Positions 521-62,776 are shown, counted from the stretch's first letter. The stretch: 63,376 bases of DNA from Candidatus Aerophobetes bacterium Ae_b3a (GCA_005223095.1 NJBQ01000003.1:1-63376); one strand, 5' to 3'. A program made the numbers and translations. Notes: generated by a model from the letters alone, not told the origin.

Positions 521-946
521 GGCGTATCTTAGAGTCAACGAAATGAGGCTCTGCTGTGGAGGAGTGGATCTTGCCTGTGACGAAGTTGGAATACTGTATG
601 CGGGGATTTCAATATCCTCTTTTGCATTGATGAAAAAAGTTCTTCTCTATAAGTTGTCAAATTCCTGAGCTAGATTTTTGGGAATCAATCTTCTCTTCGC
701 CACCATTGTGGCACACGATAGCTATTCGAATTGTTACCCTGGCAGAACTGAGCAGAATGCTGGCCATGATCCAATACCGAAACTACCCAGGATCCAGTAA
801 TAAGTAAGCCCACCCTCTTGAGTCTGCACTAGAACTCCCCAAAAGATTGACAAGTCCTGAAATTTGGCCTAATATTGACCTGCTTGTGGGGCCATTGGGT
901 CTATGGCTCTGACTCAAAAGTGGTACAATTAATGGGGGCAGGTCAC
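521..946 (+). mobile_element. E1 non-coding element, copy 1 (left end truncated)
   Basis: Aligns along its length with 3793-4173; the 786-946 segment is near-identical. Ends in a 70-nt hairpin module (TGACCTGC...GCAGGTCA). The minus-strand ORF 783..1328 crossing it is not credible. Confidence 0.5.
847..875 (+). promoter_or_regulatory. sigma70-type promoter inside E1 copy 1, reading toward the SDR gene
   Basis: TTGACA (847-852), exactly 17 nt, TAATAT (870-875). The whole 29-nt module recurs at 4072-4100 and, with variants, at four other sites. Confidence 0.55.
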
Positions 947-1005
947 GCCACTGAAGAGAAAAACTAAAAGGAAAAAAACATATCTTTGCAGTGGAGGTTA
1001 TCAAA

Positions 1006-1890
1006 ATGATGAATAAGCAGACAATACTGATTACTGGAGCCACCGGTAACATTGGGGGAGGTGCTGCGGTCGCGCTGGCAAAACGTGGAGCTAGGGTTGT
1101 ATTACTCGGGCGCAGGCTCGAAACATTAGAAGCCAGGGCTGATTCTATCCGTGCCGCTCTATCTGAAGCCCGGATCGAGTACCAGGATACAGACATTGCC
1201 ACGCTGGTAGTCGACTTCTCTGATATGAAGTCTGTGAGGCTCGCGGCAGCCGAGGCTATGAACCGATTTCCGAAGATACATGGACTGATACTATCTGCTG
1301 TCGTCTTAAAACAAAATGGTCCGAACATCCTGCCCAGCGGTCATGAGTTGATGTTTGCTACAAACGTGATGGGGCCGTTTCTGTTCACCCAGCTGTTGTT
1401 AGAGAGGATGCAGCAATCAGACGGATTGGTCCTTCATGTGGTTGCACCACACCATAAAGAAATCGACTGGGATGATCTTGAAAGCATCAAAAATCACAAG
1501 ACAGGGACCGCATTCAACAGGACTAAGACATGCAACCGGGCGATCGCTGCAGAGCTGGCTCGACGATATGCTAGAAAGATCTCCTCTGTAGCATTCAATC
1601 CTTCCTTCATCATCGATAAAACAGATCCGGAGTTAAGGAAAAGGTGGCCATCCGGATTTATGGGTTTCTTCTGGAAGGTGATGACGGTACTTATTGCAAA
1701 GCCACCGGCGGTCGCAGGTGAGCCCCTTGCGGATCTGATGCTTTCGTATCGAGATAGTAGCGCAATCAATGGAGCCTTGTTCAAACTAGATAAACGCGTC
1801 GAAAAACCTGATAAGGCAATGAATGACGAGGTATTAGGAAAAAGGTTGTGGGATGAGTTGGTTCTACTAACAGGACTAACGGCTGAATGA
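1006..1890 (+). CDS. short-chain dehydrogenase/reductase (SDR) family oxidoreductase
   Basis: N-terminal Rossmann motif ILITGATGNIGGG. The ATG at 1006 lies 8 nt after GTGGAGG; the ORF track starts at the GTG at 991. Visibly GC-richer than its neighbours. Confidence 0.85.
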   Translation: MMNKQTILITGATGNIGGGAAVALAKRGARVVLLGRRLETLEARADSIRAALSEARIEYQDTDIATLVVDFSDMKSVRLAAAEAMNRFPKIHGLILSAVVLKQNGPNILPSGHELMFATNVMGPFLFTQLLLERMQQSDGLVLHVVAPHHKEIDWDDLESIKNHKTGTAFNRTKTCNRAIAAELARRYARKISSVAFNPSFIIDKTDPELRKRWPSGFMGFFWKVMTVLIAKPPAVAGEPLADLMLSYRDSSAINGALFKLDKRVEKPDKAMNDEVLGKRLWDELVLLTGLTAE

Positions 1891-2204
1891 AGCCCGATAG
1901 CATGTCTTCAGCTGCCGTCTCAATCATCGTCTTTCGGCCATGCGCGATACATGTGTTAATGCAAATATAAGCCAAGCATGGTACGCAAAAGTAGCTATCG
2001 TGTAATCGGTTCAGATTGTTTGACAAGATTGCAATAAGAAGAGCGGCGGCGCAGAGAAGAAGAAAAGGACCGGTTTACAGCACAGAACAGCGGCCATGCG
2101 GCTACGGCCGATAAAATCGGCCTCCGCCCAAATCCTCGCTCCGTTCGGACTTCGCATAGCCGCAAACGTTGTCTTTCATGCTAGATAAGAATTACTATTG
2201 AGGA

Positions 2205-2477
2205 ATGAAAATGGAAGAAGATGTGAAAATTATGATTGAGCAATTTGTAGATTACCTATTGCCCGAGTTAACTCCTCATGAGACCTCGCTCTATCTTTAT
2301 CTGTTACGTAATTCACTTGTAAGAAACGGTTCTGTTGAGGTGCGAGTCGGTAAAAGGACTATCGCAGCCGGATATGGAAAAGGGTCAAGAGGAGAAAAAA
2401 CAAATTATGCTCATGCGTCTAAAATTTTGAAAGGGCTTGAGCAAAAAGGATGTATCAAGGTTGGAGGCAGGTCATGA
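2205..2477 (+). CDS. hypothetical protein, possibly a truncated winged-helix fragment
   Basis: 90-aa ORF that ends abruptly and overlaps the leader of the next gene. No recognisable catalytic motif. Confidence 0.3.
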   Translation: MKMEEDVKIMIEQFVDYLLPELTPHETSLYLYLLRNSLVRNGSVEVRVGKRTIAAGYGKGSRGEKTNYAHASKILKGLEQKGCIKVGGRS

Positions 2478-2529
2478 GTACCCGGAGATAGAGATTTTTG
2501 TTCGAGAAAAGAAAGAAAAGGAGACCGCT

Positions 2530-3621
2530 ATGAAGACTCGCATCAGGTTCTTATTGATTGTGATTCTGTTCTCGTTAATCTCGCCAACTGTTGTGGCATG
2601 CACATCATTTATTCTTGATAATAATGGTTTTGCCGTATTTGGGGCCAACTTTGATAATCGAATTCATGAGGGTCTATTGTTCATCAACAAAAGGAATGTG
2701 GCCAAGACACTCTTGGACCCCGGTACAACTGGTGAGTATGCTGAGTGGACATCAAAGTACGGAAGTGTAACTTTCAATGTTGTGGGATACCAATTTGCCT
2801 ATGCAGGAATGAACGAGGCAGGGTTGGTAATCAGTACCATGGCTCTGGACATAACTGAAAATCCTGCCCCTGATGAAAGAGCTCCCCTTGAAACAGCAAT
2901 TTGGGTCCAATATCAACTAGATAATGCAAGTACCACCCAAGAGGTTATTGCCAGTGATTCAGTGGTGAGGATTGCTAACACTACCGACCATTATTTGGTA
3001 TCTGACAAAACGGGAAGCTCGGCAGCGATTGAGTTTATTGAGGGTAAAATGGTTGTTCATACCGATGAAGCCATGCCGGTAAAAGCCCTGACCAATAACA
3101 CCTATGAAGAATCCGTTAGTTCATGGGAAAAGAGCAGATGGTGGATGTTCTGGAGGCTCCTGGAGAAGCGTTTTTGGAAGTCCTCGCTCATCCGCTTTGA
3201 AACAGCAGCAGACAGGGTGAGGAGTTTTAACGACAATGGCAAAGACAAAGCAGTCGAGTATGCTTTTGATACTCTAAAAAAGACATGTGATGACGCAGAG
3301 AGCAATCCTACTCAATGGAGCATGGTCTTTGATACAGAGAACCTGAAAATCCACTTTCACACAAGAACCAATCCAGAAGTTCGGTCCATAACTCTCACCA
3401 TGCTTGATTTTTCCTGCACCACGCCTGTAGGAATGCTCGACATTCACCAGGATCTCTCCGGTGATATTTCCAATGATTTCATGCCTTACTCACCTGAGGT
3501 GAATCTCAACCATTTTCTTCGTTTCTTTGAGGAATACGGACTGGTAGATATTTCTCCCGAGGAGACAAAGGAACTCACAGAGCATCTGGAGAGCTTTGAA
3601 TGTAGCGAATTGAAGGAATGA
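2530..3621 (+). CDS. choloylglycine hydrolase / linear amide C-N hydrolase family (Ntn hydrolase), secreted
   Basis: Signal peptide followed by VVA|CTSFIL, i.e. an N-terminal nucleophile Cys after cleavage. Start moved to the ATG at 2530 (MKTRIRFLL). Confidence 0.7.
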   Translation: MKTRIRFLLIVILFSLISPTVVACTSFILDNNGFAVFGANFDNRIHEGLLFINKRNVAKTLLDPGTTGEYAEWTSKYGSVTFNVVGYQFAYAGMNEAGLVISTMALDITENPAPDERAPLETAIWVQYQLDNASTTQEVIASDSVVRIANTTDHYLVSDKTGSSAAIEFIEGKMVVHTDEAMPVKALTNNTYEESVSSWEKSRWWMFWRLLEKRFWKSSLIRFETAADRVRSFNDNGKDKAVEYAFDTLKKTCDDAESNPTQWSMVFDTENLKIHFHTRTNPEVRSITLTMLDFSCTTPVGMLDIHQDLSGDISNDFMPYSPEVNLNHFLRFFEEYGLVDISPEETKELTEHLESFECSELKE

Positions 3622-3738
3622 CCCCGTAGTCACAAGCTGGACGCGCTGCTAGAGAGAATAGTAATAGAATGGATGACCTCGCTTTCTTTCCTACCCAAAG
3701 TAATGCAGCTCACGAACCAGTTATTTGTCGCCACTGAT

Positions 3739-4173
3739 TGACCTGCCCTCATTGATAATAGCACTTTTTAAGTTGGAGTTATGGGGATAATGGTCTGTTG
3801 TGGCTAAGTGACTGTTGGCTGTAATGAAGTTGGCATAGTGTATACGGGGATTTCAACATCCTCTTTAGCATTCAGAAAAAAAGTTCTAATGTCGTCCTGC
3901 CAGGTGCACCAACGTCTAAAACGCTTTTGTGGAAGTCATTTCACGTCTATTCTGATTGTTACCCTGGGAGGACTGAGCGGAATGGTAGTCGTGAACCTAT
4001 ATAGGAACCAGCGGGGATCCAGTAATAAGTAAGCCCGTCCTCTTGAGTCTGCACTCAAACTCCGCAAAAGATTGACAAGTCCTGAAATTTGGCCTAATAT
4101 TGACCTGCTTGCGGGGCCATTGGGTCTATTGCTCTGACTCAATAAGTGGTACAATATTAATGGGGCAGGTCAT
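3739..4173 (+). mobile_element. E1 non-coding element, copy 2 (most complete, both ends present)
   Basis: Left end 3739-3793 is an imperfect inverted copy of right end 4101-4173. The interior aligns with 549-946. No credible ORF. Confidence 0.55.
4072..4100 (+). promoter_or_regulatory. sigma70-type promoter inside E1 copy 2, reading toward the DUF4386 gene
   Basis: TTGACA (4072-4077), 17 nt, TAATAT (4095-4100). Identical to the 847-875 module. Confidence 0.55.
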
Positions 4174-4355
4174 TGTTTTAATCTCGCTGTTTTAGCCGTA
4201 TAAGAACAATTACTATATACAATCGTAATCTGCAATTAAGAAAAGTGAAACTATATTGCAACTAATCCAAATATAAAGTATCATGTATAAGGAAAAAGTG
4301 TTGCATGATAACTGTACGGGACAATTTAAATAGTTAAAAAGAGGAGGAAGAAAAA

Positions 4356-5063
4356 ATGAATTCAAACAAAAAGACCGCAAGAATTGTAGGAGCATTGTTT
4401 ATAATGGCGCTTGTTCTGTTTTTGATAGGAAAAGCTTTCTACGAACCAATTATAAGTTCTCCAGATTACCTGGATAATACTTATCCAAATAGAGTAGTTG
4501 TGATAATTGGAATACTGCTTGAGTTTATATCTGCTCTTGCAGTGGTTCTCATACCAGTACTCTTATTTCCCATCTTAAAAAAACACAATGAAGTCTTAGC
4601 CCTGGGCTATGTCAGTTTCAGATTGTTTGAGGCTGTGCTCTTAAGTTTTGCCCAAATCTATAAGCTGTCACTGGTTAAATTAAGTCAGGATTATTTAAAT
4701 AAAGGTGGGGTGGATGCTTCATATTTTCAAAACATAGGCAGCTCAATTCAATCAGTAATTTATTGGATCGATCATGCTGGATTGATTTATCTTATCGTTT
4801 TCGCCATAGGAGCTTTGATACTTTATTCTGCATTATACAAATCAAAACTCATTCCACGATGGTTATCAATCTGGGGTCTCATTGGTGCTGTAGCTATTTT
4901 AACTGGTTCTGTAATGGCTACATTTGACATCTCTCTAGTATTAGCAATGTTATTAATCATACCAATTGCCTTGCAAGAACAAGCTATGGCAATTTGGTTC
5001 ATTGTTAAAGGATTTAATCCATCTGCAATTGCTTCCGTGTCTGCCAAAACAGATATAAATTAA
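4356..5063 (+). CDS. integral membrane protein, DUF4386-like
   Basis: 235 aa with several hydrophobic helices. Strong RBS (GAGGAGGAAG) before the ATG. AT-rich relative to the flanking cassettes. Confidence 0.55.
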   Translation: MNSNKKTARIVGALFIMALVLFLIGKAFYEPIISSPDYLDNTYPNRVVVIIGILLEFISALAVVLIPVLLFPILKKHNEVLALGYVSFRLFEAVLLSFAQIYKLSLVKLSQDYLNKGGVDASYFQNIGSSIQSVIYWIDHAGLIYLIVFAIGALILYSALYKSKLIPRWLSIWGLIGAVAILTGSVMATFDISLVLAMLLIIPIALQEQAMAIWFIVKGFNPSAIASVSAKTDIN

Positions 5064-5171
5064 GATAAGATGAGCAGATCTAAAATAAGGAAGGATACAC
5101 AAATAAAAACGATTTACTCGTGTTCCTATTATTAGTGTTCTCATATTATTCTTACCTTTCTATTTAACGTT

Positions 5172-5201
5172 GGGGATCACGCGCGGCTGAAAGCCGTCCC
5201 C
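5172..5201. terminator. GC-rich hairpin between convergent genes
   Basis: GGGGA-tcacgcg-CGGCT-gaa-AGCCG-TCCCC. Lies between the stop codons of 4356..5063 (+) and 5235..6224 (-). Confidence 0.4.
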
Positions 5202-5234
5202 TGCATCCGCCTTGTTATGTGGTCGTTTGTTGGC

Positions 5235-6224
5235 TTATGATACCTTCTCGTTCGTCCCCCGAAAAATTCTTCTAGAGAGTCTGGCATACCGCGTCGCACT
5301 TTGAATTTGGACGATATAGGCGAGTGCGACAAGTAACCCGATCTCTGCGCCCTGGTCTTTGAAGGCGGTTATCGCCAGAACGAGAGTGATGGACAAGCTT
5401 CGTAATGCGGTCCCATACACGAGGGCAATCGCATCCTCGCGAGACAAGCAGAATTTTCCGACAAAGCTGGCAACAAGATATGTGAGCAGATAGAAGAGGA
5501 TGAGAGGCACGGCCATTCGGATGATGAGGGCTGGAGACTTGACAAGCGTCTGCGCCTTTACCGCGATCGCGACAAAGATTATGCCGATCAATCCCCAGGT
5601 TGAACCTGCGGGAAGGAGCGGCTTGATCCTGGTGGTAAAGATCTGTTTACCAACGTGCTTGAGCAAAAGAACGCGTGTCAGTTGCCCAAGGAGCAATGGA
5701 AGAAACACAATCAGCAGGATGGCTTGTCCTACCTACGAAAATGGGATCGCGACGGTTTTCCCCATTAGCACCTTTAGGTACAGTGGCGCACAGAGGGTCC
5801 CTAATAGGAGCCCAATGACCGTCATCTTGACGGCCGCCTGAATGTTTCCCCGGGCCAATCCTGTCCATGAAATCGTCATCCCGCCACTCGTGGGGAGAAG
5901 AGCGACCAGTAAGAAGCCCAGTACCAAAGATGGGTGCTGGTGAAAGAAAAGCAGACTCACGCCATACCCAATGAACGGAATGATGGCAAAATTCACGATT
6001 TGTGTCACGAGTAACACCCTGGTATCCGTCAGAGTAACGACGCTTCTCAAGGGCAATCCGATCATCATGGGATACACGATGAGGATCGTGAACGGAATGG
6101 TCCACTGTTTCAAGACACTGAGATCCCAGGCATAGCCTGCCACAATGGCGAGAACGACGGTCAGTGGAATCACGAAGAGAAGATGCTGTTTGAGGAAAAG
6201 AGAGAGTCTCCACAGGTATTTCAT
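5235..6224 (-). pseudogene. bile acid:sodium symporter (BASS/ACR3-like) family transporter interrupted by one in-frame TAG
   Basis: ORFs 5733..6224 and 5235..5708 are in the same frame, separated only by a TAG at 5733-5735. The hydrophobic helix sequence continues straight across it (..AIPFS*VGQAILLIVFLPLLL..). Combined length of about 329 aa is typical for the family. Confidence 0.6.
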
Positions 6225-6462
6225 GTCACGTTCTTTCTGCGTCTCTGAATTGGCATAAAATCCTACGGATCATCTCGTAGATAATGGGAGCATGAGGTGT
6301 TATTATACAGAACTCCACAATATCAAAATTTATCAACATATCAAGGTGAATTATCTGAGATTTAATCATATTACTTTTCAATAAGACCTTACAAGATGAT
6401 AAAATTCTATACGATAAGGAGACATACAGAATTCCGTATAATCATTGAGTTTCATATCAGCT

Positions 6463-6702
6463 GACTCACCCCCATTAGTAGTATCACTTGTTAAGTTGGA
6501 GTCAATGGAATAATAACCTCGGGAGGATGTGGCCGGTAGTTCGAGGAACTGTGCGGTCGTGTTATCACAAACCAGCTAGATTGACATGTGCTGGGATTTG
6601 TCTTGGGGTGTTCTAACCCCGTGTGAGACTGGAATGTCGTAGATTGGGATCTCTATATTTTCTTCGAAAAAAGTTCGAACAACGTCCGGCCAGGCGCACC
6701 AG
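6463..6702 (+). repeat. E1 element, truncated copy (left end and part of interior)
   Basis: 6463-6539 matches the E1 end module (GACTCACCCCCATTAGTAGTATCACTT..). 6581-6601 is a TTGACATGTGCTGGGATTTG variant of the promoter module. 6640-6702 matches 3850-3915 of copy 2. Confidence 0.45.
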
Positions 6703-6726
6703 TATTATTCCTTCCATTTGTCCCTT

Positions 6727-6765
6727 CCCCTCACCTTAATCCTCTCCCCTTGGGGGAGAGGAAAA
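6727..6765 (+). repeat. short conserved hairpin repeat (CCCCTCACCTTAATCCTCTCCCC-ttg-GGGGAGAGG)
   Basis: 9-bp stem at 6741-6749 / 6753-6761. A near-identical copy lies at 37573-37610. Both are upstream of plus-strand genes. Confidence 0.5.
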
Positions 6766-6855
6766 ATGGAACATTTCTCTTTTTTTTTCGTCTAATGTAA
6801 TAAAGATTAAGGCGAAAATTACCACTAAATATTAGTTTTAGTTAGGGAGGTGAAG

Positions 6856-7395
6856 ATGAAGAGAAAGTGGCTGATAGTATTGATGGGAGGATTAGTGCTG
6901 GTAGGCATAGTAGCTTCCGGGGCATTGGCCAGTCAAAGAGTAGATGTTAAGTTCAATGGGAAGAGAGTCAGGGCCCATATTCATCCGGAAAAAGACAAAC
7001 GTGAGATAAAGGTTATGCTTCGCAAAGAGAGCAAGGTGGAAGCAGCCGGGGTGTTGTCCGATTTGGATTTAACTACAGAGCAGCAAGAAGGACTAGACAA
7101 ACTACAAGTTGCTTTTCAAAAGGATATTCTTGAACTACGCTTGCAATTGGAGGAAAAGCAGCTTGAGCTCAAGAGACTACTCTTGAAAGATTCCCCTGTT
7201 CAGGAAGAAATCGAGGTTCTGGTGGATGAAATGGGAACTGTCTGGGCTGAGATTCAGAAAAAGAGTATTAGTTTTAAAATGAACCTGGAAGACATATTGA
7301 CCGAGGAGCAATTAGTTAAATTACGCAGAAGAGAAGGCACAAGGTTCAGGGCAGAGATAATGAGAAAAAATAGAGTCTTTTGTCGTTTCCGGTAA
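6856..7395 (+). CDS. periplasmic Spy/CpxP-family (LTxxQ-type) stress protein
   Basis: Signal peptide, then a coiled-coil region with LTTEQQ and LTEEQ motifs. The ATG at 6856 lies 5 nt after AGGGAGG. Confidence 0.6.
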   Translation: MKRKWLIVLMGGLVLVGIVASGALASQRVDVKFNGKRVRAHIHPEKDKREIKVMLRKESKVEAAGVLSDLDLTTEQQEGLDKLQVAFQKDILELRLQLEEKQLELKRLLLKDSPVQEEIEVLVDEMGTVWAEIQKKSISFKMNLEDILTEEQLVKLRRREGTRFRAEIMRKNRVFCRFR

Positions 7396-7490
7396 AACGA
7401 AAATTTAGTTAATAGGGAAGAGGAATCATTAAGATTGAGTATTCTCAGAGGAAGAAGATTCCTCTTCCTTTATCCTATAGAAGTGATATA

Positions 7491-20999: not shown

Positions 21000-21076
21000 T
21001 TCCCTTTTTCCTTTTCTTCCTTATATCAATAATCTTCTGGCTCAGCTTGGAAAGAATTAGCACAGAAAAAGCAGTT

Positions 21077-21316
21077 TGTCAAGAAATACCTCAGGAGAAT
21101 TTCTTCCGTCGCTGTATAGTAGCTTCTTATTATTTCTACTCAGCTTCTCGTTTCGGGAAAAATATAAACTCGTCGCTTCCTATCTGCCAAGCTAACACAG
21201 GCAAGCACTCCTCAAACAGTATATTTTTCTTTATCCTCAACTCGAAGCTTCGTTAAGGTTGCTCCTATAAGGCTCCTTCAGAAAATGTCCTTCGGTAGAC
21301 CATATAATTTCCTAGC
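21077..21316 (-). repeat. R2 MITE-like repeat, copy a (inverted orientation, with an extra insert of about 30 nt)
   Basis: The reverse complement aligns with 28569-28759 and 52493-52704. Ends in TTGACA (21077-21082) facing yjbQ. Confidence 0.55.
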
Positions 21317-21420
21317 TCATCAAGATAATTCAGAATTCAAAAGAAAGAAGAAAGTGTCGTTTGACAATGTGAGACAATAGGCTAGAATTACTCCACCTCG
21401 AAAGAAAGGAAGGCCTCTTT

Positions 21421-28432: not shown

Positions 28433-28568
28433 TAGACTCACCCCCATTCTGCGGCATCTTTTAATTATATCTGGACGTATCACTATTATAAGAATAGTAA
28501 CACATGGCAAGAAAAAGTCAAATATTTCTGGAAATTGTCCTTCAGTATTTCCTTTATCACATCGCTGC

Positions 28569-28759
28569 CGAAGGACATTTTCTGAAGAAGCCTTATAGGA
28601 GCAACCTTAACGAAGCTTCGAGTTGAGGAAAAAGAAAAATATACTGTTTGAGGAGCAAGGCGAGGAGTTTATATTTTTCCCGAAACGAGAAGCTGAGCAG
28701 AAATAATAAAAGGCTACTATACAGCGACGGAAGAAATTGTCCTGAGGCTCTTGTTGACA
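28569..28759 (+). repeat. R2 MITE-like repeat, copy b
   Basis: Aligns with 52512-52704 with few mismatches. Imperfect terminal inverted repeats (CCGAAGGACATTTTCTG / AAGAAATTGTCCTGAGG). Ends in TTGACA (28754-28759). Confidence 0.55.
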
Positions 28760-34020: not shown

Positions 34021-35355
34021 ATGGAAGAGAATTTATTTTATCAGAAGAAAATAGATAAAGCAAAGAAGCAGGCTCCTCTGGCTGATCGAATTCGACCACA
34101 AACATTGGATGAGTTTGTAGGGCAGGAGCATATCATAGGAAAGGGTAAAATATTACGAAAGATGCTAGAGGAGGATAAACTTGTTTCTATGATTTTCTGG
34201 GGACCTCCTGGCTCAGGAAAGACAACTTTGGCTCGCATCGTTGCTCGTCTTGTCCGTTCATACTTTGTTCAGTTCTCTGCTGTTACCTCTGGGGTAGCCG
34301 AGGTCAGGAAAGTAGTAAAAGAAGCAAGAGTGAGGCTAAAAGTCTATAATCAGAAGACTATTCTTTTCATTGATGAAATCCACCGGTTTAACAAAGCCCA
34401 ACAGGATGCTTTTCTGCCTCATGTTGAGGACGGGACTATTCTTTTGATTGGTGCTACCACTGAGAATCCTTCTTTTGAAGTTATCGGGCCACTTCTTTCG
34501 CGAGTAAAAATTTTTGTTTTAAAAAGGTTAACTTCCGACGAAATCAAGAAGCTTTTGGCTCGGGCAATAAATAATAAAGAAAGGGGATTGGGCCGATATA
34601 AGGTAGAGCTCGACTCGGAAGCCTTGCATTTGATTATTGATAGTTCCAATGGGGATGCCAGGGTAGTTTTAAATGCTCTAGAGATAGCTGCTGAAACCAG
34701 TAAGTCAGATGACAAAGGCATACGTCATATTGATATTAAAACGGCCAGGGAAGTTCTGCAAAGCAGAGCCCTTTTGTACGATAAAGCCGGCGAGGAACAC
34801 TATAATGTTATTTCTGCCTTTATTAAGTCTATGCGGGGGTCTGACCCAGATGCAGCTCTGTACTGGCTTGCCCGGATGATTGAAGCCGGTGAAGATCCCC
34901 GTTTCATTGCCAGAAGAATGGTTATTTTTGCCTCAGAGGATGTGGGAAATGCTGATCCCCAGGCTTTATCAATAGCTACCGCTGCTGCCCAGGCAGTAGA
35001 GTTTGTAGGTCTACCCGAGGCTCAAATTAATCTGGCTCAAGCAGCTACTTACCTTGCCTCTGCTCCTAAATCTAACGCTTCTTATGCAGGTCTTCTAATG
35101 GCCAAAGAAGACGTAAAAAAGACATTAAATCTACCGGTACCTTTGCATCTTCGGAATCCAGTTACTCCTTTAATGAAAGAACTGGGTTATGGCAAGGACT
35201 ACAAGTATCCTCATAGCTTTCCTCAGGCTAAAGTAGAACAGACGTTTTTACCGGAAGAATTAGAGAATAGGAAATATTATAGGCCTACCCAGAGGGGCTT
35301 TGAAAAAACAATATTAAAGAGATTGGAGCTAGATGATGAAAAGAAAGGCAAATAA
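34021..35355 (+). CDS. rarA: replication-associated recombination protein A (AAA+ ATPase RarA/MgsA)
   Basis: Walker A GPPGSGKTT, Walker B FIDEIHRF, and a C-terminal MgsA domain (DPDAALYWLARM). Confidence 0.9.
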   Translation: MEENLFYQKKIDKAKKQAPLADRIRPQTLDEFVGQEHIIGKGKILRKMLEEDKLVSMIFWGPPGSGKTTLARIVARLVRSYFVQFSAVTSGVAEVRKVVKEARVRLKVYNQKTILFIDEIHRFNKAQQDAFLPHVEDGTILLIGATTENPSFEVIGPLLSRVKIFVLKRLTSDEIKKLLARAINNKERGLGRYKVELDSEALHLIIDSSNGDARVVLNALEIAAETSKSDDKGIRHIDIKTAREVLQSRALLYDKAGEEHYNVISAFIKSMRGSDPDAALYWLARMIEAGEDPRFIARRMVIFASEDVGNADPQALSIATAAAQAVEFVGLPEAQINLAQAATYLASAPKSNASYAGLLMAKEDVKKTLNLPVPLHLRNPVTPLMKELGYGKDYKYPHSFPQAKVEQTFLPEELENRKYYRPTQRGFEKTILKRLELDDEKKGK

Positions 35356-35384
35356 AACCGAGCTTACCTTAATTAAAGAAATAT

Positions 35385-36048: not shown

Positions 36049-36296
36049 GCCTCAAACAAGTGAGGCTTTAGTATTTTCTTATCTCTATAACTATTAGGAG
36101 TTTACTACATTTCAGAATTTTGTCAAGTGCTTGTTTCTTGACTTTTTTTGGAGTATTCTTATTATCGGAATTTAATGCAGGAACTTGAATACCCGAGAGA
36201 GAAAGGAGAAAAAACAATACTAAGGAGATTGGAGCTAGATGATGAAAACAAAGGTAAATAAAACCGAGCTTACCTTCGAGGCATACTTAGAAAAAA

Positions 36297-46703: not shown

Positions 46704-47094
46704 CTATATATTTCCTTCGACAAACTGAGCATAAATCCTCATAGTCAGCAGACTCTTGTATCCAAGAAGAGTCTGGATAACCTTCCAGACAGTCCTCTTA
46801 CTCATGTCATGGTTAGGGGAAACACAAAAAGCATCCCGTCTTAGATATTTAGGATATCTATCCGCTAAACTGTGACAGTCGATTTCCTTCATCGTCTCAC
46901 CCACAGTAGGCTCAGAGTAGTTCATCAATCTTTGTCTCTTCCGGATTCCATATGACCACCCAGTACGCCATCTTGAGGTCACAATCTACCATTAAAACAT
47001 TTTGGGGTTTAAGCGTTAAAGCGTGTGAGAGATTAGCTGCTGTTATGGTTTTGCCTGGTCCACCCTTGAAGTTCAAAATAGCTATTTTATTCAT
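46704..47094 (-). pseudogene. ParA-like ATPase N-terminal fragment running into a tyrosine-recombinase C-terminal remnant
   Basis: MNKIAILNFKGGPGKTITAANL is a deviant Walker A. The reading frame collapses after about 60 codons. The downstream overlapping frame ends in HDMSKRT..IQTLLGYKSLLTMRIYAQF, which resembles the catalytic tail of a tyrosine recombinase. Confidence 0.5.
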
Positions 47095-47126
47095 CTAGTG
47101 ACCTCTTGTCCTTTGGTTCGGCCGTT

Positions 47127-47411
47127 GTGACCTGCCCCCATTAATAGTGCCACTTCTTACAGTTAGAGTCAATGAAATGATGGCCTCCGGAGCAGGTAGT
47201 CGGTAATCAAGAGTATGGGGGCCTCATTTGATTGCAGTCTTTACGCTACTCTTCAATTAAGAGACTTGCTTAAGCTAAAGTTATAAATATTTCAGGAGCC
47301 TATCTCTTAGCTTACCGTTGAGTGATTATATGTGATATTATTCCCCAGAGCCGGATGTTCCCTGACAATACACTGAAGGGGACTACTAGGCCAAATCTCA
47401 GCACTTGTCAA
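47127..47411 (-). repeat. E1-derived unit (promoter module, about 170 nt of unrelated insert, right-end hairpin module)
   Basis: On the minus strand: TTGACA (47411-47406), 17 nt, TAGTAG. 47198-47127 matches the 877-946 and 4102-4173 hairpin module (..ATTAATGGGGGCAGGTCAC). Confidence 0.45.
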
Positions 47412-52492: not shown

Positions 52493-52704
52493 CTAGGAAT
52501 TATATGGTCTACCGAAGGACATTTTCTGAAGAAGCCTTATAGGAGCAACCTCAACGAAGCTTGGAGTTGAGGAAGAAGAAAAATATACTGTTTGAGGAGC
52601 AAAGCGACGAGTTTATATTTTTCCCGAAACGAGAAGCTAAGCAGAAATAATAGAAGGCTACTATACAGCGACGGAAGAAATTGTCCTGAGGTAATTTCTT
52701 GACA
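52493..52704 (+). repeat. R2 MITE-like repeat, copy c
   Basis: Aligns with 28569-28759, and in reverse with 21077-21316. Ends in TTGACA (52699-52704), then 17 nt, then TATACT. Confidence 0.55.
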
Positions 52705-61019: not shown

Positions 61020-62776
61020 TGTTTAAAGTAAGTAAGTTGTGGCCCATTCTTGCCTTGACCGTCTTAGCTTTGTTGTTCAGCGTAACCCCTTCATTCTCCT
61101 TCTTGTACGATGGCCTCCACTGGGATGATAGCGACCTGCCAGTTAGATGGGAGATAAATCAAGACGGGACAGCCGACTGCACCGGAGAATTTGATGCCAT
61201 TAGAGCCGGATATCAGACGTGGGAGAATGTTAGCGGTAGTTATTTTAGCGAAACATATCTGGGCACAACCAGTCGTGGGCTATCCTATCCAACAAGGGAC
61301 GGGTACAATGTGGTCTCCTGGGGTGACAGCGAACCAGGGGGAAGTGTGATCGCAGTATGTTGGACCTGGTATGACACGGCTACGCTGGAGATTGTTGAAT
61401 GTGATATTGAATTTCAAAATGATATTGTTTGGTCATCAACCGGAGAGGCAGGAAAATTCGATGTCCAGAATATAGCCACCCATGAATTCGGGCATACTTT
61501 GCTGTTAGGGGATTTATACTATCCTACTTCTGAACATTCTGAGAAGACGATGTACGGCTGGTCTTCTGAGGGTGAAACCAAGAAAAGAACTTTACACCAG
61601 GACGATATAGACGGCATTCGCTACATCTATCCCGAGTCGGGAAACCAACCTCCTAACACCCCTTCAGTGCCCACAGGCCCCAGCAGCGGATCCCCGGGGG
61701 TCTCCTACAGCTTCACTGCCACCACTACTGACCCCGATGGAGACCAAATAGCCTTCAAGTTTGACTGGGGAGACGGGATTGAGTCTGGTTGGACCTCTTT
61801 TGTCAACAGTGGAGGTTCGGCTAGCCTGTCCCACTCCTGGTCTGGTCAGATGACTTATGAGGTGAAGGCAAAAGCAAAAGACATCTATGGTGGCGAGTCA
61901 GCTTGGTCTGCAGGGCATGACATCGTGATTGGCCAGCCACCCGCTACTCCTTCATTTCCCTCAGGACCTGACAGTGGCATGCGTGACGTTTCATACAGTT
62001 TTACTGCAATCACTACCGACCCTGATGGGGACCAAATAGCTTTCAAGTTTGACTGGGGAGATGGTAGCCAGTCCGGTTGGACCTCTTTTGTCAACAGTGG
62101 AGGTTCGGCTAGCCTGTCCCACTCCTGGTCAGGCGAAGGCACCTACCAGGTGAGAGTGAAAGCAAAGGACGCTTATGATGCAGAATCTGGATGGTCTGCG
62201 GCCCATTCAATAATAATCAGAATTATTCTTCTGCAAGTTGACCCTTCTTCTCTAGATTTTGGCGAACTGGGAAAAGGTTCAAGCAAGACAATGACTTTTC
62301 GGGCCTACAATGCTGGTGCGGGCACACTAAGTGGGAGCGTTACAGTTAACCGTGATTGGATGACTGTAAATCCATCCGGCTTTGAAGGCAATGATAACAC
62401 AATCTATATAACTGTTGAAACAGAAGAATTGACAGAAAGCTTAAGTCCCTACATGGGTGCGGCAACTGTGATCTCCAATGGGGGAACTGAAACCATCGAA
62501 GTATCGCTGCTTGTCATCCCCAGCGGGATAGTAGCTTATCCTAATCCGTTCTCTCCTTCGGCACATACTAATCTAGTCTTCTGGGGAAATTCTGTTCCCT
62601 ATATGAAAATACGAATTCTTAATCTTAGCGGGGAGCTGGTAAAAGTCTTGCAGGAGAAATACGGCAATAGCATGGTTTCCTGGGATGGTAAAAATGAGCA
62701 GGGTAATCTAGTAGCCAGAGGTATCTATATCTTTGTGATGGAAAACTTTAGCGGGAGAATAGCTGTTGTGAAATAG
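61019..62776 (+). CDS. secreted metzincin-type zinc metalloprotease with two PKD-like repeats and a C-terminal FlgD-Ig / sorting-type domain
   Basis: HEFGHTLLLGD zinc site with an Asp in the third-ligand position, and a Met-turn candidate (KTMYG). Two FKFDWGDG repeats. The C-terminus has NPFSP...WDGKNEQGNLVARGIY. Confidence 0.75.
   Translation: MFKVSKLWPILALTVLALLFSVTPSFSFLYDGLHWDDSDLPVRWEINQDGTADCTGEFDAIRAGYQTWENVSGSYFSETYLGTTSRGLSYPTRDGYNVVSWGDSEPGGSVIAVCWTWYDTATLEIVECDIEFQNDIVWSSTGEAGKFDVQNIATHEFGHTLLLGDLYYPTSEHSEKTMYGWSSEGETKKRTLHQDDIDGIRYIYPESGNQPPNTPSVPTGPSSGSPGVSYSFTATTTDPDGDQIAFKFDWGDGIESGWTSFVNSGGSASLSHSWSGQMTYEVKAKAKDIYGGESAWSAGHDIVIGQPPATPSFPSGPDSGMRDVSYSFTAITTDPDGDQIAFKFDWGDGSQSGWTSFVNSGGSASLSHSWSGEGTYQVRVKAKDAYDAESGWSAAHSIIIRIILLQVDPSSLDFGELGKGSSKTMTFRAYNAGAGTLSGSVTVNRDWMTVNPSGFEGNDNTIYITVETEELTESLSPYMGAATVISNGGTETIEVSLLVIPSGIVAYPNPFSPSAHTNLVFWGNSVPYMKIRILNLSGELVKVLQEKYGNSMVSWDGKNEQGNLVARGIYIFVMENFSGRIAVVK

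Follow-up and report, generated by a model that had tools for sequence, protein, structure and literature searches.

A non-coding repeat with IS3-family right ends and an outward consensus promoter in Candidatus Aerophobetes

E1, a 434-bp non-coding repeat in the genome of Candidatus Aerophobetes bacterium Ae_b3a, is bounded on both sides by the right end of an IS3-family IS and carries a consensus promoter that points outward through its right tip. Because the right half of E1 (~280 nt) is found in related bacteria of cold seeps before at least eight different genes, it appears to be a recurring functional unit, most likely a reusable promoter module and not a new type of mobile element. As a whole, E1 is probably a non-autonomous composite scar of recombination-scrambled IS3-family ends that delivers a promoter, and not a distinct new element. 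The window referred to throughout is the whole 63,376-nt stretch of DNA that was analysed (NJBQ01000003.1). The original prediction for this locus, of a MITE-like repeat with unfamiliar ends that carries its own strong promoter, was confirmed in part as an observation and supported in part as an interpretation: the repeated, non-coding and IS-like nature of E1 found support, but the novelty of its ends, its status as a MITE and the idea of a private promoter did not.

The tips of E1 are TGACC, starting at 3739, and GGTCA, ending at 4172, which leaves base 4173, originally included, in the flank. As expected from the outset, the repeat holds no credible ORF: ORFs of 74 amino acids (plus strand) and 72 amino acids (minus strand) are present without codon periodicity, substitutions in 14 aligned copies fall at the three codon positions in the numbers 59/72/77, with no 3-base periodicity, and a Pfam search of E1 returned no match. 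A small protein encoded in module Y was likewise considered and rejected, there being no codon periodicity. The terminal inverted repeat proved real on formal alignment but extends over about 37 nt, not the 55–73 nt claimed for it; the arms are identical at 30 of 37 positions, with a score of 31 compared with 12.5 ± 2.1 for shuffled sequences, a value reached by 1 of 2,000 shuffles. The right end also forms the hairpin ascribed to it (−25.5 kcal/mol, z = −2.4, equalled by 1 of 200 shuffles). Between the arms lie about 290 nt of non-coding DNA made up of modules X, Y and P (Table 1). To the left, E1 does not adjoin unique DNA: its tip follows a truncated IS3 right end, opposite in orientation to the left arm; this remnant is orthologous to complete right-end modules found after a CBAH-family gene in four related loci (L058, L066, L067 and L070) and stops in the window at ...GTCGCCAC.

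Table 1 Coordinates of E1, its modules and related features in the window
Start	End	Strand	Feature
467	544	-	Tyrosine integrase C-terminal remnant (LTLRYAHLSPEHKKVALDVLGKR), cut where the second copy begins
550	945	+	Second copy: X', Y with 26-nt insertion, P at 840-875, M_R at 875-945; upstream of SDR gene
2462	2473	+	Last 12 nt of IS tip (GGCAGGTCA...) upstream of CBAH-family gene
3700	3736	+	Truncated remnant of another IS3 right end (orfB 3' region, sense +), adjoining the E1 left tip
3739	3812	-	Left arm M_L: IS3-family IRR and decayed last orfB codons, inverted, tip at 3739
3739	3773	.	Left arm of the formally aligned inverted repeat; partner 4136-4172
3827	3911	+	Module X; last 18 nt (3894-3911, GTCCTGCCAGGTGCACCA) similar to an att core or the 3' terminus of a tRNA-like gene
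3912	4063	+	Module Y, conserved non-coding spacer, ~150 nt
4064	4100	+	Promoter module P: -35 at 4072-4077, -10 at 4095-4100, predicted start near 4107; outward through right tip
4100	4172	+	Right arm M_R: last ~14 IS3 orfB codons (PACGAIGSIALTQ*) and IRR, tip at 4172; DNA-level hairpin
6463	6702	+	Unit U: inverted IS3 right end 6463-6536, orfB RPHS remnant, promoter (-35 at 6581), X at 6620-6702
47127	47333	-	IS3 right-end remnant, 207 nt, tip at 47127
47386	47411	-	Promoter module, aimed through the IS remnant at a truncated ParA-like ORF
48540	48575	-	Stand-alone promoter module upstream of HAD-hydrolase gene
49479	49512	-	Stand-alone promoter module upstream of PNP_UDP_1 gene

The identity of the ends came from an intact IS at nucleotides 2–1214 of a related locus, L023 (NJBP01000066.1, Ca. 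Aerophobetes Ae_b3b), the right end of which is the E1-type end module. The termini of this IS are TGACCTGCCCCCC... (IRL) and ...GGGGGCAGGTCA, with IRR read as ...TTAATGGGGGCAGGTCA; its orfA encodes 92 amino acids with an HTH_Tnp_1 domain, and its orfB encodes 271 amino acids with HTH_21, rve and rve_3 domains and the C-terminal end ...RPHSSLNYRPPAPEAIIPLTLT*. OrfB scores 236.5 bits on the NF033516 model 'IS3 family transposase' (cutoff 160). Its identity to annotated IS3-family transposases carried by plasmids of cultured bacteria is 66–68%; the element that encodes one of them, annotated as IS3 and located on the Sphingorhabdus plasmid NZ_CP022549, has the same termini (TGGCCTGCCCCCC... and ...TAATGGGGCAGGCCA). 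Aligned with the right end of the L023 element, the left arm of E1 is identical at 44 of 58 positions (score 46 for IRR, 20 for IRL) and the right arm at 38 of 46 (47 for IRR, 25 for IRL), the arms being IRR/IRR in inverted orientation and not IRL/IRR. In minus-strand reading the left arm gives PQQTIIPITPT*, corresponding to PAPEAIIPLTLT* of L023, and the decayed orfB codons of the right arm are retained in register.

The ends of E1 had been put forward as belonging to no recognised IS. Both instead consist of the last orfB codons and the IRR of an IS3-family right end with TG...CA tips, and a match to a known IS was the very finding that the original prediction had named as counting against it. 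With the IS3-family elements of L023 and Sphingorhabdus E1 shares the termini TGACCTGCCCC... and ...GGGGCAGGTCA as well as the TG...CA tips, and its arms keep the last orfB codons ...PPAPEAIIPLTLT* in register. Unlike them, E1 lacks orfA and orfB, has right ends on both sides and has no target-site duplication, and nothing in its interior (X, Y and P) can be recognised as IS3 sequence; in E1, tblastn searches for orfA and orfB detected only the decayed last orfB codons of the arms, and no intact IS was found within the 63-kb window. Judged by alignment, the arms of E1 are ordinary IS3-family right ends and E1 is not an autonomous IS. Across the related loci and the window, the ~70-nt end module occurs in 17 copies, all with a sharp outer edge at TGACC and unrelated flanks.

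The promoter itself, TTGACA and TAATAT separated by a 17-nt spacer, is present as described (10/12) and is the best site in 3500–4450; a second, weaker promoter-like site at 4256–4284 lies nearer to the downstream gene. The core TTGACAAGTSCTGARATTTGG occurs six times in the window, compared with 0.01 expected, and all six copies are intergenic and aimed at a downstream gene (SDR, DUF4386, Spy-like, ParA-like remnant, HAD and PNP_UDP_1). They belong to a stereotyped module, TTGACAAGTGCTGAGATTTGG...TAnnnT with a conserved spacer, at 847, 4072 and 6581 on the plus strand and at 47411, 48560 and 49503 on the minus strand. About 45 further copies of the core with TAnnnT at the −10 position were found in related MAG loci (L001–L054), in at least two upstream contexts (CCTCCAAAACCAGA or ATTTCGTGCAAAACTTCG) and with unrelated downstream sequence. 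In these related loci a same-strand ORF starts within 350 nt of 39 of 68 sites, compared with 19 of 68 in a mirror control. One orthologous pair (49503 in the window and 4497 in L043) has kept 20 of 21 positions of the core while its flanks have diverged. A scan for the promoter core with one genome per species showed it to be concentrated in a few MAG groups, namely Candidatus Aerophobetes and several labelled 'uncultured Clostridia'. Near-identical promoter sequence thus precedes non-homologous genes in the window and in related MAG loci. Since copies of P occur throughout the lineage, also far from IS ends, P is a module of the lineage and not, as had been proposed, a feature private to E1.

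Module P is repeatedly found next to IS3 sequence. In five loci it adjoins an inverted remnant of an IS3 right end, meeting it at orfB codon ~240–250, and in L020, L022 and L052 the IS3 homology extends to the upstream edge of P; homology through the P core was not demonstrable, the tblastn match ending at or just inside the upstream edge of the module. An origin of the core as orfB coding sequence read in antisense was considered and may be possible: in L052 the reverse complement of P is in frame with an orfB remnant, ...RPHSVLNYRPPAPEATIPLTLT*. In E1 and at 47411, P is reversed with respect to the IS end when compared with the five abutting loci. A more far-reaching proposal, which we advance tentatively and regard as doubtful, is that the ~40-nt P is a lineage-wide portable promoter of Aerophobetes-like bacteria that was seeded by, or has hitch-hiked on, IS3 right-end fragments, with units of the type of the E1 right half as the vehicles that would place it before genes.

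We determined how much of E1 recurs by scanning metagenomes with the junction of the −10 element and the right arm, a query that returned 18 loci. A stretch of ~280 nt, from ~3878/3894 to 4172, is common to nearly all of them at 82–90% identity and consists of the last 18 nt of X (the tRNA-3'-like or att-like core), Y, P and one IS tip. The two-ended 435-bp form was not found elsewhere among these loci; only the right-hand ~280 nt recur. Beyond the tip lie at least eight unrelated contexts (SDR, CBAH-family, DUF4386, an ECF-sigma-like gene and four others), and in seven of eight a gene on the same strand starts 30–180 nt past the tip, so that the anticipated outward consensus promoter before different genes is indeed found in related genomes. 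On the left the recurring unit does not begin at an IS tip, and the sequence there varies, with P and X in some loci and TTGTGAC repeats with a tRNA-3'-like fragment in others; at about 10 loci elsewhere X comes after a promoter module. Over 2.6 kb the window shares 93% identity with another Aerophobetes contig, and the public runs that contain its sequence are cold-seep and marine-sediment metagenomes.

Within the window, the copy reported at 521–946 is real as a second copy but has narrower limits and no left arm. It is 76% identical to E1 over 406 nt, rising to more than 95% in the last ~160 nt, and its ortholog precedes the same SDR gene in L055, L060, L062, L067 and L068. The integrase remnant beside it is 73% identical to residues 244–269 of an integrase encoded in L010 (tblastn). 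Where the window keeps only a 12-nt tip before the CBAH-family gene, L058, L065, L066 and L070 have the full Y-P-M_R unit. The stretch 6463–6702, taken for a truncated E1, is a different arrangement of modules (IS tip, promoter and X) that is also present in L052, L001, L020 and L022, and 47127–47411, taken for a rearranged piece of E1, resolves into a separate promoter copy and an IS3 right-end remnant that is 76% identical to nucleotides 1000–1214 of L023 and matches orfB residues 227–271 by tblastn. Directly downstream of that remnant, at ~46920–47095 on the minus strand, is a truncated ParA/Soj-like ORF (MNKIAILNFKGGPGKT...). At 28455–28500, where a short remnant had been suspected, only a bare 14-mer without extension was found (28435–28448).

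Several other features of the window were recorded. At 5235–6224 on the minus strand, an SBF-family gene (bile acid:sodium symporter) lies beside a choloylglycine-hydrolase-family gene (2437–3621) and the SDR gene (991–1890); it is split into two ORFs (5733–6224 and 5235–5708) and is therefore probably a pseudogene. A second dispersed non-coding repeat of ~185–250 nt, with inverted ends AGGACATTTTC / GAAATTGTCCT, is present at 28565–28747 and 52509–52691 (plus strand), at 21075–21325 (minus strand) and at 1410–1635 of L012; its copies are 82–96% identical, each is followed by TTGACA with a gene downstream, and it has no Rfam match. At the palindrome CCTCTCCCCTTGGGGGAGAGG (~6741–6764) many contigs of other runs end or branch and the bin depth rises up to ~20-fold, which suggests another highly repeated short element. 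Further internal repeats are the pairs 35302–35370 / 36208–36276 (94% identical) and 61700–61911 / 61988–62199 (81%).

Module X has affinities of its own. A tRNA-3'-like fragment, ...CCGCGGGCCGCGGGTTCGAGTCCTGCCAGGCGCACCA, preceded by TTGTGACCAATTTGTGAC repeats, lies at 6050–6240 of L058 (minus strand), likewise in L063, L065 and L067, and at 4500–4650 of L027, and fragment and repeats together look like the att site of an integrative element; such fragments beside the repeats resemble the T-arm and acceptor stem of a tRNA. One possibility considered was that X is the decayed DDE 'E' region of orfB (minus-strand reading WCAWQDVVRTFFEE..IEIPIYDIP, its indels all divisible by three in length). 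Pfam and tblastn gave no support, X having no significant match to orfB, and the first 18 nt of this supposed orfB region are instead identical to a tRNA-3'-like fragment; an origin as an IRL-derived left end was rejected, since X has no significant match to IRL either.

Comparison of related loci revealed extensive rearrangement at the modules. Synteny of the window with L067, L062 and L058 breaks at them; L066 and L064 have the tip and downstream gene in common and differ upstream of ACCTGC; and L061 contains a tandem P-X-Y-P-X-Y-P-tip array at 2379–3057. L059 and L072 represent one locus, in which L059 lacks most of the 73-nt IS-end module through a deletion between short GGGGTAGA repeats. 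Independent assemblies from other cold-seep runs (contigs 2869–3836 and 3099–4094) contain the same junction of CBAH flank and E1 left arm, which is thus not an assembly artefact. Elsewhere contigs break at the repeats, where depth is 2–20 times background. Taken together, the mosaic junctions, the IS end in the left flank and the synteny breaks are better accounted for by recombination among scattered IS-end repeats than by one unit transposing cleanly time after time.

That conclusion bears directly on the classification of E1 as a MITE, which was not supported. E1 has terminal ends that match an IS and is small without a transposase gene, as a MITE is; it has no target-site duplication (...CTGAT on the left, TTGTT... 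on the right, that is, GAT compared with TTG), and no further copies of the same two-ended unit were found at unrelated sites in the loci compared. We therefore consider it unlikely that E1 is a still mobilisable IRR-IRR deletion derivative of an IS3-family IS, moved in trans by OrfAB and dropping its promoter beside genes, even though both termini are authentic inverted IS3 tips with sharp outer boundaries, related genomes have an intact IS of this family and the right-hand unit occupies at least eight contexts. Two-ended relatives do occur in L070 (537 nt), L067 (~710 nt) and L057/L069, but they differ in length and interior; the left tip of E1 adjoins a truncated IS end in place of unique target DNA, the recurring unit does not have a tip as its left boundary, and the 63-kb window contains no IS that could be recognised as intact. 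Nor was a filled/empty site polymorphism seen, related contigs differing at the modules by rearrangement and not by clean presence or absence, and an exact-protein look-up of the DUF4386 gene product, made in search of an empty site, returned no record. That E1 is currently mobile as a MITE is possible but unsupported. The 73-nt right arm on its own was also considered as a mini-MITE and was rejected, there being no duplication at its borders. Another account, which we judge rather improbable, would make X–Y the attB/attR scar of a tyrosine-integrase element at a tRNA-like 3' end, with the repeat produced by att duplication and the IS ends and promoter as bystanders. L010 speaks for it, having TTGTGACCAATTTGTGAC repeats and an intact Xer-like tyrosine integrase after P-X, as do L058, L063, L065 and L067, where ...GGGTTCGAGTCCTGCCAGGCGCACCA and integrase-arm-like repeats directly precede Y, and the integrase remnant beside the second copy. 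Against this, ARAGORN and Rfam detected no complete tRNA or tmRNA with a matching 3' end (GTCCTGCCAGGCGCACCA / GGTTCGAGTCCTGCCAGGCGCACCA), ARAGORN on the window and 24 loci found no tRNA or tmRNA at the modules and no tRNA in the window, and no attL/attR pairs bounding an island were identified; such a scar would also fail to explain why the right boundary is always an IS tip and why the unit stands immediately before at least eight unrelated genes.

Two further readings fare worse. A stable hairpin after the promoter, the location of the unit in the 5' regions of genes and the conservation of Y, which equals that of neighbouring coding genes, would suit a structured regulatory RNA (a 5' leader, a riboswitch-like element or a small RNA) formed by E1 or its right half. 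We nevertheless hold this very unlikely: the window has no Rfam match, nor has 3500–4400 even at E ≤ 10, in agreement with the original remark that E1 was not recognised as an Rfam family; a check of Y-P-M_R for covariation came out empty, with an RNAalifold term of +0.56 and double changes in only 6 of 64 pairs; with transcription predicted to begin within the hairpin's 5' arm, an RNA could not fold into the outer stem; and the downstream genes are functionally unrelated. Almost no credence can be given to the modules as integron-like, attC-type cassette boundaries in a gene-cassette array. Like attC sites they are hairpin-forming ~70-nt repeats between genes, in a repeat-gene-repeat-gene order over 550–7400 of the window and with tyrosine recombinase remnants nearby, but they end in TGACC/GGTCA and have no GTTRRRY core, they are the coding 3' end and IRR of an IS3 element, and the integrase scores 75.9 bits against 265 and 49.8 against 435, far below the integron-integrase cutoffs. 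E1 is not an attC site, in keeping with the original remark that it was not recognised as one.

On the reading we prefer, of E1 as a composite scar, transcription is predicted to start 6–8 nt after the −10 element, inside the 5' arm of the hairpin, which makes the outer stem a feature of the IS tip as DNA and not of an RNA. The transcript would cross the final ~65 nt of the IS end before entering the adjacent gene, which in this case is the DUF4386 gene at 4356, and for the window copy the weaker site at 4256–4284 may also contribute. We infer promoter activity from the match to consensus; cold-seep 'RNA-Seq' runs provided only contigs, with flat, DNA-like depth and no 5' ends. The ~280-nt unit probably spread and was reshuffled through homologous recombination between dispersed IS-end copies, as the mosaic patterns suggest, and the action of an IS3 transposase on the tips may have contributed.

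E1 has clear counterparts among known systems, resembling both the outward promoters of IS ends and promoter-bearing MITEs. Correia elements of Neisseria are MITEs that carry promoters: short and non-coding, with inverted, hairpin-capable ends, they lie 5' of genes and have an outward promoter near one end, and they occur as uniform two-ended units with target duplications in hundreds of copies. E1 is like them in being short and non-coding, in its inverted, hairpin-capable ends, in its position 5' of a gene and in its outward promoter near one end, and unlike them in that its two-ended form is not uniform, has no duplication and recurs as a one-ended piece. Classical IS3-family ends usually supply only a −35 element in IRR, whereas E1 has a complete −35/−10 pair 72–100 nt inside the tip, in DNA that replaces the transposase gene. 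The provision of outward promoters by IS elements, with a promoter inside the IS end reading into the adjacent gene as in E1, is the subject of a review (PMC9330008), and latent promoters of IS3 elements are the subject of a preprint (bioRxiv 10.1101/2023.10.22.563463). With 'promoter reuse', or mobile promoters in prokaryotes (PMC3575422), P shares the occurrence of near-identical ~40-nt modules upstream of non-homologous genes within and between genomes; it differs in its conserved 15-nt spacer and in being repeatedly joined to IS3 right-end fragments in either orientation. Going by these sequence comparisons, E1 is a new, lineage-specific example of a known phenomenon, the reuse of IS debris as a promoter module; no new class of mobile element or RNA emerges from it.

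The stereotyped promoter module, with its conserved spacer and wide distribution, is the more interesting object. The repeats matter for assembly and binning, as contigs break at them, and as points of recombination that reshuffle gene order they bear on the evolution of regulation and synteny in genomes of bacteria that cannot be cultured. If the promoter is active, Candidatus Aerophobetes and its relatives, an uncultured lineage of cold seeps, would offer a clear case of IS debris put to new use, furnishing unrelated genes with ready-made promoters and 5' modules. Should the tentative proposal of a portable, lineage-wide P be true, large-scale domestication of decayed IS ends would have given a poorly known phylum its standard promoter cassette.
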